DNA from: Candidatus Vogelbacteria bacterium RIFOXYD1_FULL_44_32
GTDB taxonomy: Bacteria > Patescibacteriota > Minisyncoccia > Phycocordibacterales > XYD1-FULL-46-19
Assembly (NCBI GenBank): GCA_001823065.1
Contig: MHTJ01000002.1
Location: 156,320 to 220,319, forward strand
Reading direction: 5' to 3'
Length of the DNA stretch: 64,000 nucleotides
The translations under genes were made by a program, and so were the position numbers. This document shows positions 1,707 through 2,394 of the stretch, piece by piece. Position 1 is the first letter of the stretch. Every line of letters starts with the position of its first letter. Under the pieces are notes generated by a model. It had not been told where the DNA came from. It did not search any database and saw only the letters and a program-made list of their open reading frames with translations.

Positions 1707-1851
1707 ATTTATTTCAAAAGTTTATTGTTTAAAACCAACATAATATATGTCTGTACATTTTAAACTATAAATGTAATACATAAACTTTTTTGTCGCTTTT
1801 GCAAACCTTGGCGGACTTTGTCACGCCGTAGGTTCGCTTCGGCGAACCGAA

Positions 1852-1904
1852 GGCGGAGGGGGAGAGATTCGAACTCTCGATGCCCTTGCGGCCTGGCGGT
1901 TTTT
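1852..1904 (-). other. tRNA-like 3' half (outer): anticodon 3' stem, long variable arm, T-arm, acceptor 3' strand CCCCTCC plus discriminator G.
   Basis: On the minus strand: AAAACCGCC AGGCCGCAAGGGCATC GAGAGTTCGAATCTCTC CCCCTCC G CC. It follows the second copy of the 40-nt repeat. Confidence 0.5.
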
Positions 1905-1939
1905 CCGCCCGAGGCGGACCCGCCTCGGGCGGGCAAGAC
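1900..1939. repeat. 40-nt direct repeat copy 2 (tttttccgcccGaggcggacccgcctCgggcgggcaagac). It forms an 11-bp hairpin.
   Basis: Matches 2325-2364 except for two substitutions that keep the hairpin base pairs (a/g and t/c). Confidence 0.8.
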
Positions 1940-1953
1940 ACAATTATCTTCCG

Positions 1954-2042
1954 TGCGGAGGGGGTGGGATTCGAACCCACGGTCCCGTTACCGAGACTCT
2001 TGTTTTCAAGACAAGCGCGATCGGCCTCTCTGCCACCCCTCC
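1954..2042 (-). tRNA. tRNA-Ser (anticodon TGA), complete class II tRNA with a long variable arm.
   Basis: Acceptor GGAGGGG/CCCCTCC with discriminator G. Anticodon stem-loop CTTGT CTTGAAA ACAAG. Variable arm GAGTCTCGGTAACGGGAC. T-loop GTGGGTTCGAATCCCAC. Confidence 0.85.
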
Positions 2043-2078
2043 GCACGAAAGACAATTTAATTCTAAAGTATCAGATTT

Positions 2079-2321
2079 TTACAGACCTAGCCACTTTATT
2101 CTTTCTCGACCTTTACCACTTTTTAAAAACAATTCTTCTTTTCGGGCAGAGGTCTTGGTTTCAAATGCTTCGTAATAAACCAATTTCCAAGGTCGTCCAG
2201 CTTTGGTGCTTGTTACTTTTTCGCTATTGTGTTGCCTAATTCTTTCAGGTAAATCACCGCAAGATCCCTTGTATAATTTACCAGTGGTTTGGCTTTTTAG
2301 AATATATACATAATAGAACAT
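2079..2321 (-). CDS. GIY-YIG nuclease family protein (YhbQ/UPF0213-like small endonuclease).
   Basis: YYVYILKSQTTGKLYKGSCGDLPERIRQHN ... YYEAF matches the GIY-YIG core. The ATG sits 3 nt after repeat copy 1. Confidence 0.8.
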   Translation of the reverse strand: MFYYVYILKSQTTGKLYKGSCGDLPERIRQHNSEKVTSTKAGRPWKLVYYEAFETKTSARKEELFLKSGKGRERIKWLGL

Positions 2322-2324
2322 AAG

Positions 2325-2364
2325 TTTTTCCGCCCAAGGCGGACCCGCCTTGGGCGGGCAAGAC
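2325..2364. repeat. 40-nt direct repeat copy 1 (tttttccgcccAaggcggacccgcctTgggcgggcaagac). Same hairpin.
   Basis: Lies between the outer tRNA 5' half and the GIY-YIG ORF. On the minus strand it begins GTCTTG, which is the anticodon-stem end plus the anticodon-loop start. Confidence 0.8.
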
Positions 2365-2394
2365 CGGTGCGATCAACCACTCTGCCACCCCTCC
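2359..2394 (-). other. tRNA-Ser-like 5' half (outer): acceptor, D-arm, anticodon 5' stem, and loop nucleotides CTTG.
   Basis: On the minus strand: GGAGGGG TG GCAGAGTGGTTGATCGC A CCGGT CTTG. The segment CGCACCGGTCTTG is identical to canonical tRNA-Ser(UGA). Confidence 0.55.

Follow-up and report, generated by a model that had tools for sequence, protein, structure and literature searches.

Background

In phage T4, SegB is a free-standing homing endonuclease of the GIY-YIG type that is encoded in the tRNA region, and it probably spreads by a DNA break whose repair co-converts the flanking tRNA sequence (PMC2330249). Slx1, another GIY-YIG enzyme, is structure-selective and acts on branched DNA, which it cuts close to the branch point at several sites (PMC6902002). 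Its prokaryotic homologues are the minimal stand-alone form; the survey that describes them is silent on any linkage to tRNA genes, and a GIY-YIG/TrmH fusion prompted the suggestion that they have a role with RNA (PMC1564403, Dunin-Horkawicz et al. 2006). Group I introns have been reported in the tRNA-Asn and tRNA-Asp genes of Patescibacteria, in a paper that mentions neither tRNA-Ser nor GIY-YIG genes or hairpins (PMC13011429), and palindromic repeats of coding regions, for example PARCEL, have been described as selfish palindromic DNA (PMC2996958). Here we report a locus in a 64,000-nt stretch of DNA (hereafter the window) from Candidatus Vogelbacteria bacterium RIFOXYD1_FULL_44_32 (assembly GCA_001823065.1, contig MHTJ01000002.1, positions 156,320 to 220,319 of the forward strand), in which a small GIY-YIG nuclease gene and an intact tRNA-Ser(TGA) gene, bracketed by two copies of a 30-nt double hairpin, lie between the two halves of another tRNA-Ser gene.

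We consider it probable, on balance, that the locus is a selfish cassette, made of a nuclease and a replacement tRNA, which became lodged in a resident tRNA-Ser gene and left the outer halves as remnants. The cassette is widespread in Patescibacteria and some other uncultivated phyla. It is made up of the 30-nt double hairpin, the Slx1-like gene and an intact tRNA-Ser gene flanked by a short inverted repeat, and its complete form has a second double hairpin as well.

Structure of the locus

The initial annotation of the window, made from the sequence alone, had read the locus on the minus strand in the order tRNA 5' half, repeat, GIY-YIG gene, tRNA-Ser(TGA), repeat and tRNA 3' half, and all of these elements were found where it had put them. 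The outer tRNA-Ser 5' half, GGAGGGGTGGCAGAGTGGTTGATCGCACCGGTCTTG (2394..2359, tRNA positions 1-35), is made up of the acceptor strand GGAGGGG, the D arm, the anticodon stem CCGGT and the loop bases CTTG. It runs into the left 30-nt double-hairpin unit, CCCGCC-CAA-GGCGGG / TCCGCC-TTG-GGCGGA (2329..2358), a palindrome that matches the consensus of the family described below. On the inner side of this hairpin, the five bases AAAAC (2324..2328) continue the tRNA (positions 36-40), and the ATG of the GIY-YIG gene begins 2 nt past them. The gene (2321..2079; Pfam PF01541) encodes 80 amino acids of the Slx1/UPF0213 lineage, a minimal protein with the catalytic domain only. The intact inner tRNA-Ser(TGA) (2042..1955) was called by ARAGORN and matched the Rfam tRNA family with 53 bits (E=3.5e-10). 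Repeat search and folding placed the two arms of an inverted repeat beside it; the left arm (2043..2057) lengthens its acceptor stem, and the right arm (1942..1954) lies on the other side. There follow TCTTG (1934..1938), five bases that resemble tRNA positions 31-35 and adjoin the right hairpin on its inner side, the right 30-nt double-hairpin unit CCCGCC-CGA-GGCGGG / TCCGCC-TCG-GGCGGA (1904..1933), likewise a palindrome and scored as a downstream unit, and the outer tRNA-Ser 3' half (1903..1854, positions 36-73), which contains AAA, ACCGC, the variable arm, the T arm GAGAG/CTCTC, CCCCTCC and the final G. All of these features are on the minus strand.

The hairpin units are placed exactly between G35 and A36 of the outer tRNA. 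Together with the tRNA bases on their sides, AAAAC and TCTTG included, they form a direct repeat, the copies of which (2364..2324 and 1939..1899) are identical at 39 of 41 positions and each contain a perfect 13+13 palindrome. The initial annotation was right that two copies bracket the insert, but the repeat is 41 nt long, not 40. Just these two copies occur within the 64-kb window, and the chance expectation was 0.00-0.04. Counted with the acceptor strands, the inverted repeat around the inner tRNA is 22 nt long and 91% complementary, and the extended acceptor stem is also seen in the fold of the window sequence. The insert between the outer halves measures 454 nt, its sole open reading frame (ORF) is the GIY-YIG gene, and the neighbouring genes encode DUF5652 and GrpB proteins.

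Compared with the matching parts of the inner tRNA, the outer 5' half shows 83% identity (6 of 36 positions differ) and the outer 3' half 80%; the T stems differ too. A naive join of the outer halves gave an 8-nt loop, and ARAGORN returned no isotype for it. If one of the five A's is given to the insert, the joined halves form an 88-nt tRNA-Ser(TGA) by ARAGORN, which agrees with the identity first assigned to them, although the length had been put at 87 nt, the extra A has to be placed in the insert and the stem carries a C27.C43 mismatch. This placement is what the family-wide 30-nt unit predicts, and with it the "extra A" vanishes.

Two further observations were made directly downstream of the outer 3' half. 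A 19-codon ORF, MYYIYSLKCTDIYYVGFKQ (1722-1781, minus strand), resembles the N-terminus (GIY...YVG) of a gene of another GIY-YIG subfamily that is stopped early. The sequence immediately after the outer half, CCGCCTTCGGTTCGCCGAAGCGAACCTACGGCGTGACAAAGTCCGCC (1809-1853, minus strand), is shared with positions 2790-2870 of an unrelated locus (L190), where it likewise comes right after a tRNA 3' fragment and is interrupted by a 53-nt block. It folds into small hairpins (z = -3.1) and may be another small element linked to tRNA 3' ends.

Occurrence of the cassette in other genomes

When metagenome contigs were scanned with a profile built from 36 homologues, 536 relatives of the nuclease were confirmed. 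The best 80 of the 536 were fetched and, with the window, gave 77 non-redundant loci, on which the following counts of architecture are based (single loci are cited by number). An intact tRNA gene was found on the same strand within 200 nt downstream of the ORF, usually 12-50 nt off, in 68 of the 77. Serine tRNAs made up 63 of these (Ser-GCT 19, Ser-TGA 18, Ser-CGA 16 and Ser-GGA 10), and the others were Tyr-GTA (3) and Cys-GCA (2); most of the remaining 9 loci reach the contig end. Upstream, a GC-rich double hairpin was present 7-35 nt before the ATG in 67 of the 77 loci, and in 51 it is abutted by a tRNA-Ser-like 5' fragment which starts at tRNA position 1-4. All contigs that carry the identical window protein have the cassette.

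For 37 loci the junction between tRNA fragment and hairpin was mapped exactly. It lies after tRNA position 5 (1 locus), 8 (3), 12 (11), 13 (7), 14 (6), 15 (1), 20-21 (4), 25 (1) or 35-36 (3), and these positions, one exception aside, are unpaired in the cloverleaf or at the edge of the D stem. Past the hairpin, the tRNA sequence picks up at the next base (X+1) and goes on for 5-11 nt at 33 of the 37 junctions.

The nested arrangement of the window is not unique to it. Among 63 testable loci, at least 9 carry another hairpin unit no more than 120 nt past the intact tRNA, and a tRNA 3' fragment comes after this unit; L122, L133 and L199 are additional nested cases with variant stems or a contig end. 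Both units occupy one anticodon-loop position in the window, L139, L133 and L199, and the last three also have tRNA-like bases on the inner side of the right hairpin, as in the window. In L143, L147, L165, L189 and L190, the second unit lies in the T loop (GGTTC/unit/GAATCC) and the first in the D or anticodon loop; L122 and L167 appear to share the T-loop placement. A plain tRNA array had been judged inadequate to explain the locus, and the finding of a nuclease and tRNA cassette inside a tRNA-Ser gene, with duplicated hairpin junctions, bears this out.

Four loci, L189, L167, L147 and L161 (the last of which has no ORF), have outer 5' and 3' acceptor strands that pair with each other and differ from those of the inner tRNA (for example, GGAGAGG/CCTCTCC outside and GGAGGGG inside, or GGAGGCG/CGCCTCC and GGAGAGG). 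Of all the observations, this one points most clearly to the breakage of a resident tRNA gene and to its replacement by the inner tRNA. An inverted repeat of 10-15 nt often borders the inner tRNA and lengthens its acceptor stem (L122, L139, L143, L147, L161, L189 and the window).

A search of species-representative genomes with the hairpin only recovered the cassette architecture independently, in a metagenome-assembled genome (MAG) of Eubacteriales (L040), in an unclassified MAG (L046) and in an Omnitrophota MAG (L074). In L040 the hairpin is at the identical anticodon-loop position of a tRNA-Ser(TGA), and in L074 the cassette lies beside a tRNA-Val. In a deep branch of the ORF tree (L175, L185, L186 and L188), longer and different paired hairpins stand upstream of the ATG, e.g. 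CCGCTCGTATCGCTATGCGATCGAGCGG / CCGCTCA...TGAGCGG; there the position of the hairpin is kept and its sequence replaced.

Structure of the hairpin unit

To analyze the hairpin, 49 distinct units were aligned with the two CC-NNN-GG apices, 15 nt apart, as sole anchors, while the outer stems were left free. The unit is 30 nt long and consists of YCNGCC-CRA-GGCNGR followed by YCNGCC-TNG-GGCNGR. Counted over the outer 4 bp of both hairpins, 386 of 392 cells contain a base pair, compared with 290.6±6.1 when partners were shuffled, and none of 1000 shuffles reached 386. At least seven stem variants occur per hairpin (CCAG/CTGG, TCCG/CGGA, TCAG/CTGA, TCGG/CCGA, TGCG/CGCA and others). We concluded that the double hairpins are selected structures, the two stems of which covary independently. 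Of all stem cells, 578 of 588 are Watson-Crick pairs and just 4 are G.T. Such near-strict Watson-Crick pairing is more in keeping with a DNA palindrome, which has to pair on either strand, than with selection on RNA.

Structural selection had been suspected from the start, on an 11-bp hairpin in the window, and the covariation upholds the selection, but the form is that of two 6-bp hairpins. A single long hairpin under RNA selection was rejected, as it paired 279 of 392 cells, which equals the shuffle baseline. The a/g and t/c differences between the two window copies had been read as compensating changes; in the two-hairpin form they fall in the loops, and 11 of 49 units have middle loop bases that are complementary, as expected by chance. 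The window units are atypical in that both stems are CCGCC, so that one 12-bp hairpin can be folded as well. The unit was also considered as an intrinsic terminator and rejected: T/Y precedes and A/R follows it on both strands, a terminator scan made no call, and its solo copies (see below) are mostly within ORFs. A promoter scan likewise gave nothing at the unit and predicted none upstream of the outer half.

Properties of the predicted nuclease

The GIY-YIG identity first given to the ORF was confirmed by a match to Pfam PF01541 (53.5 bits, cut-off 22.6; E=2.9e-14). Across the relatives, 23 columns are invariant, and all of them are kept in the window protein, including Y, R, H and E of the catalytic type; it has Y4, Y6, Y17, G19, R27, H31 and E62/E63, residues that 36 relatives share without exception or nearly so. 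Among PDB sequences, the family profile matched 1zg2 (BH0048, UPF0213; 1.4e-10), 1ywl (EF2693; 3.6e-6) and SLX1 (~3-5e-3). The AlphaFold model (mean predicted local distance difference test score, pLDDT, 92.8) has the beta-beta-alpha-alpha-beta-alpha-alpha GIY-YIG fold and no further domain. By Foldseek, 1zg2/UPF0213 and Slx1 are nearest (TM 0.69-0.74, 28-36% identity), I-TevI is more distant (E=0.3, 18% identity) and UvrC is likewise well behind. From the profile matches and the model, the window protein is predicted to be a nuclease, a minimal stand-alone GIY-YIG domain of the Slx1/UPF0213 lineage.

The initial annotation had thought of an intron or homing cassette, but membership in the I-TevI/Seg lineage of homing endonucleases is not borne out. 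The NCBIfam "group I intron endonuclease" model gave 18.4 bits on the window protein, under the cut-off of 56, and a C-terminal DNA-binding module of the I-TevI/Seg type is absent, as all 80 amino acids are catalytic domain. Therefore the protein lacks what defines classical homing endonucleases, and its fold is that of an enzyme that reads DNA shape. A search for relatives of the ORF in viral contigs found none. Some database gene calls (e.g. P0006) bear N-terminal extensions, e.g. ...SPRLIRLGRKNLFYM, which result from reading through the hairpin unit; automated annotation makes the ORF too long in these cases.

Solo hairpin units in protein genes

A genome scan for the unit with CCGCC stems listed at least 120 loci, which span Patescibacteria, Omnitrophota, Planctomycetota, Kiritimatiellia, Verrucomicrobiota, Ignavibacteria and others; the counts in this section are among the matches listed, of which about 15, in high-GC genomes, look like chance. 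Most solo copies (86 of ~112) are inside long ORFs. In 64 of 90 units the reading frame is the one that yields the decapeptide S-A-x-G-G-S-A-x-G-G, and because the DNA is pseudo-palindromic, either orientation yields the same decapeptide. The host genes are core genes and encode RpoC, DnaE, UvrA, PheT (two copies), ValS, RecG, Mfd, HsdR and DnaJ; examples of solo units are L098:1647, L050:686, L096:4889, L027:5846 and 6866, and L108:2920.

Comparison with known structures located some of these inserts. In RecG aligned with 1gm5, HGRM[PARGGSASGG]K stands opposite HGRL-S with an 11-aa gap, Mfd aligned with 6ac6 has two gaps, of 9 and 10 aa, and the RpoC unit is within a lineage-specific insertion. 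The insert of L098 measures exactly 30 nt, lies between ATG and AAG and shows no target duplication. UvrA was discarded as a clean case of insertion, since its alignment is confounded by a missing domain.

A GIY-YIG relative was found within 400 nt of a solo unit in 4 of the at least 120 loci, and 8 of 127 units lie within 300 nt of a tRNA gene, a modest excess over the ~3 expected; solo units are not mainly tRNA-associated. Their loops are mostly RRA/TYY, and those of the gene-linked units are CRA/TNG. Two side observations concern the Planctomycetota-Verrucomicrobiota-Chlamydiota (PVC) group. In PVC-group MAGs (L004, L009, L043 and L079) the unit is set in a longer repeat, with CATAGGAATTTT before it and ACAATCCG after it. 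In one of these, a Kiritimatiellae MAG (L004:4480-5130), two units stand 130-200 nt upstream of a distant GIY-YIG gene, and no tRNA is nearby. The junction module of the cassette is therefore one of a family of very small palindromic inserts that have settled in genes, and the solo unit looks like a minimal selfish palindromic insert across several phyla.

Possible origin and mobility of the cassette

In the reading that we favour, the Vogelbacteria cassette would lie inside a former resident tRNA-Ser(TGA) gene, whose outer halves would be broken remnants and not exons, and the insertion would be tolerated because the inner tRNA replaces the lost function. The nuclease may be structure-specific and recognise either the extruded double hairpin or a folded single-stranded tRNA gene, and it might break the DNA a few bases from the recognised structure. 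Repair would then copy the ORF and the tRNA, with tRNA-Ser sequence as the sole available homology. Repair guided in this way would account for the duplication from tRNA position 1, for the 5-11 nt of tRNA inside each hairpin and for the variable junctions, and it would also allow the cassette to move among Ser isoacceptors and the Tyr and Cys genes, which are similar in the D arm. The cassette would probably be transcribed from the upstream signals of the invaded tRNA gene, and the inverted repeat around the inner tRNA could form a processing stem.

Several features of the family are signs of mobility. Neighbours in the ORF tree occupy different isoacceptors and junction positions, and many tRNA-Ser genes on cassette-bearing contigs are unoccupied. 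This partial occupancy and the disrupted tRNA genes are indirect signs of homing, in which an allele without the gene would be cut and the gene copied into it. Degenerate derivatives occur as well: ORF-less relics in L161 (1110-1400, nested) and L181 (2790-2900, a fragment with two units directly upstream of a tRNA-Ser(TGA)), tandem tRNA 5' fragments with a hairpin unit in each upstream of an intact tRNA-Arg (L119:2400-2660), and, downstream of the tRNA-Ser(CGA) of L176, a multi-hairpin pseudo-tRNA with four hairpins at position 25/26.

A number of points weigh against this reading. The initial annotation had looked to related loci for presence or absence of the insert, and they supplied presence, as the cassette recurs in 77 loci and at least 9 of 63 are nested, but among close relatives no allele with an empty site came to light, and the DUF5652 neighbour has no close homologue. 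The sole syntenic relative found, L204, whose neighbour gene is 60% identical, carries a single tRNA-Ser(TGA) gene (2841-2929) after DUF5652, in a conserved VTT-RuvX-DUF5652 order. This gene is intact and uninterrupted but lies on the opposite strand, so that the finding is no more than suggestive; its anticodon stem and T arm resemble those of the inner, not the outer, window tRNA. An all-against-all BLASTN comparison of the loci recovered no near-identical cassettes in different contexts and gave only same-locus duplicates or ~80% identical spans of fragment, hairpin, ORF and tRNA. As recently moved copies were not recovered, the boundaries of the mobile unit are undefined. The 3' fragments of L165 and L190 agree with the inner tRNA and not with a distinct resident gene. 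Finally, classical site-specific homing does not explain the variable junctions or how the inner tRNA escapes cleavage, and the protein has no DNA-binding domain by which recognition of the target could be accounted for.

The alternative that survives best shifts the emphasis to the hairpin. By analogy with repetitive extragenic palindromic sequences and their tyrosine transposases (REP/RAYT) or with miniature inverted-repeat transposable elements, the unit itself might be the real mobile element and the GIY-YIG gene its autonomous driver. The nuclease would cut the base of the extruded double hairpin, and the unit would move as DNA, for example single-stranded and ligated into a nick; a place between hairpin copies beside a tRNA would offer the gene a safe and well-expressed harbour, and the tRNA fragments would be by-products of breaks 5-11 nt away. 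We regard this as unlikely, although it has real attractions. The 30-nt unit stands alone in at least 120 loci of many phyla, mostly inside long ORFs, it is an exact insertion in RecG and Mfd and has no target duplication in L098, its stems are strictly Watson-Crick, the nuclease has a structure-specific fold and its gene is nearly always 7-35 nt downstream of a unit, and the distant GIY-YIG gene of the Kiritimatiellae MAG has two units upstream and no tRNA. Yet the 4 in at least 120 solo loci with a GIY-YIG relative nearby would fit non-autonomous copies or no relationship equally well, solo copies are absent from the 64-kb window, and the loop types of solo and gene-linked units differ. To our knowledge, no GIY-YIG enzyme mobilises DNA in the way that is needed here.

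A related and still tentative suggestion is that the Slx1-like gene and the 30-nt double hairpin together make up a new class of mobile DNA with the unit as its non-autonomous element. Being exactly ten codons long and pseudo-palindromic, the unit encodes the same harmless linker either way and could thus colonise genes such as those for RecG, Mfd, RpoC, PheT and ValS, while the nuclease gene would persist by nesting in tRNA-Ser genes with a replacement tRNA. The kinship with REP/RAYT and IS200/IS605 is in logic only; membership in either was rejected, as no HUH (Y1) transposase gene is present at the cassette.

Rather improbable in our view is a domesticated arrangement, in which the small protein would serve the host, for example in nucleic-acid processing, and be expressed together with tRNA-Ser. 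The upstream fragment and the hairpins would then act as signals for regulation or processing, and the outer halves would stem from local duplication and decay. The 23 invariant columns at 50-75% identity do speak of strong purifying selection, the linkage of gene and tRNA is deep (the order tRNA-Arg(GCG)-cassette-tRNA-Ser(CGA) is found in L123, L131 and L165), recent transposition was not seen, and the RNA role suggested from the GIY-YIG/TrmH fusion (PMC1564403) would be in keeping with it. Against these stand the partial occupancy over six tRNA species, incongruent with the ORF tree, the acceptor stems of outer fragments that are unlike those of the inner tRNA, and the ORF-less relics and truncated second copy; moreover, a regulatory role leaves the hairpins in tRNA 3' fragments downstream of the tRNA unexplained.

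An intron or split tRNA, which the initial annotation had thought to fit the pattern, now has very little in its favour. The 454 nt would be removed, the outer halves ligated to the 88-nt tRNA-Ser(TGA), and the hairpins would mark the splice sites. Indeed, deleting everything between G35 and A36 leaves a tRNA-Ser that ARAGORN recognises, the window, L139, L133 and L199 hold both units at one anticodon-loop position, and 12 of 13 positions in the 5' arm of the left unit could form pairs with the 3' arm of the right unit. However, an Rfam scan of 1400-2900 (E<=10) found no group I or II intron or other non-tRNA family in the insert, and 12 related loci scanned at the gathering threshold gave only tRNAs and one unrelated 6S RNA, so there is no ribozyme core. 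The borders are CTTG/hairpin and hairpin/AAAA, where a 4x4 internal loop lies beside a possible 13-bp long-range helix, which is not a bulge-helix-bulge. Most relatives have the 5' fragment alone and lack the 3' half, and at least five nested loci have the second hairpin in the T loop and the first in the D or anticodon loop; with the two hairpins at different tRNA positions, excision cannot rebuild a tRNA there. In the window, the joined tRNA carries the C27.C43 mismatch, and an intact tRNA-Ser(TGA) is already inside. The hairpin by itself was also tried as a mini-intron of complete tRNA genes and rejected: when 212 units were deleted in silico with 16 boundary variants each, a tRNA was restored once (L074).

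Integration by an integrase, with the insert as an island remnant and the 41-nt repeat as its duplicated attachment core, is equally hard to credit: the anticodon loop is a classic integration sublocation of tRNA-targeting islands, and the confirmed direct repeat starts there and brackets the insert, but no recombinase is encoded in or next to the 454-nt insert, the repeat does not regenerate the outer tRNA, relatives frequently have their two hairpins at tRNA positions that do not correspond, in L190 with one hairpin inverted, and the core of the repeat is the conserved 30-nt unit that occurs in protein genes too.

Significance

If the cassette is what we propose, a selfish nuclease gene can live in an essential single-copy RNA gene without an intron by bringing a spare copy, and the stand-alone bacterial Slx1/UPF0213 nucleases, a large and obscure family, would gain a testable substrate in the double hairpin by tRNA genes. 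The ten-codon palindromic unit in core proteins of Patescibacteria, Omnitrophota, Planctomycetota, Kiritimatiellia and others may matter more; if its mobility holds true, the 30-nt unit would rank with the smallest pieces of mobile DNA that are known. The results are relevant to annotation, since spurious tRNA fragments, over-extended ORF calls and unexplained Gly/Ser/Ala loops in proteins of the candidate phyla radiation are concerned, and to how reduced genomes tolerate selfish DNA. Neither the cassette nor the 30-nt unit was found to be described in the full-text literature searched, in which subscription journals are thinly covered.

Comparison with known systems

By sequence and fold, the best match to the cassette protein is the Slx1/UPF0213 family (BH0048, EF2693, YhbQ-like proteins), the members of which also consist of the catalytic domain only. 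Structure-specific cleavage is known for Slx1-Slx4; unlike Slx1, the window protein has no Slx4-like partner and no RING/zinc domain. In the searchable literature, no systematic link of this family to tRNA-Ser genes or to a conserved double hairpin has been reported.

The integrating islands and prophages of tRNA genes share with the cassette a partial tRNA copy by an intact one, a direct repeat at the borders and a breakpoint in the anticodon loop, whereas the cassette has no integrase, an insert of only ~0.4 kb, a duplicated 5' part and a palindrome interrupting each fragment. The split tRNAs of Nanoarchaeum and the tRNA introns of Patescibacteria resemble the locus in their separated halves and in GC-rich complementary sequence at an anticodon-loop break; in contrast, a ribozyme core, a bulge-helix-bulge and evidence of joining are absent at the window locus, and an intact copy lies between the halves.

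The hairpin unit has its own counterparts. REP/RAYT and IS200/IS605 systems likewise have dispersed short hairpins, an enzyme gene flanked by them and recognition of DNA structure, but they use HUH tyrosine transposases, and REPs are extragenic whereas the 30-nt unit is mostly intragenic. Rickettsia palindromic elements and PARCEL are, like the unit, tolerated in frame in protein genes, housekeeping genes included. The Rickettsia elements are ~100-150 bp long and confined to one genus; the present unit differs in its 30-nt length, in giving the same decapeptide in either orientation, in its spread across phyla and in its tie to a nuclease-tRNA cassette.

In its overall plan, the cassette is most like SegB of phage T4, where a nuclease gene also lies among tRNA genes and a working tRNA allele travels along. 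The Seg proteins, however, have DNA-binding domains and belong to the lineage of homing endonucleases and UvrC, whereas the window protein is an 80-aa Slx1/UPF0213 catalytic domain; the cassette, moreover, is chromosomal in bacteria, leaves hairpin-interrupted tRNA fragments and has junctions that vary in position. Conceptually, the cassette is a variant of the free-standing nuclease cassettes, while the link between the nuclease as driver and the hairpin as passenger, if it holds, would be a new kind of mobile DNA.

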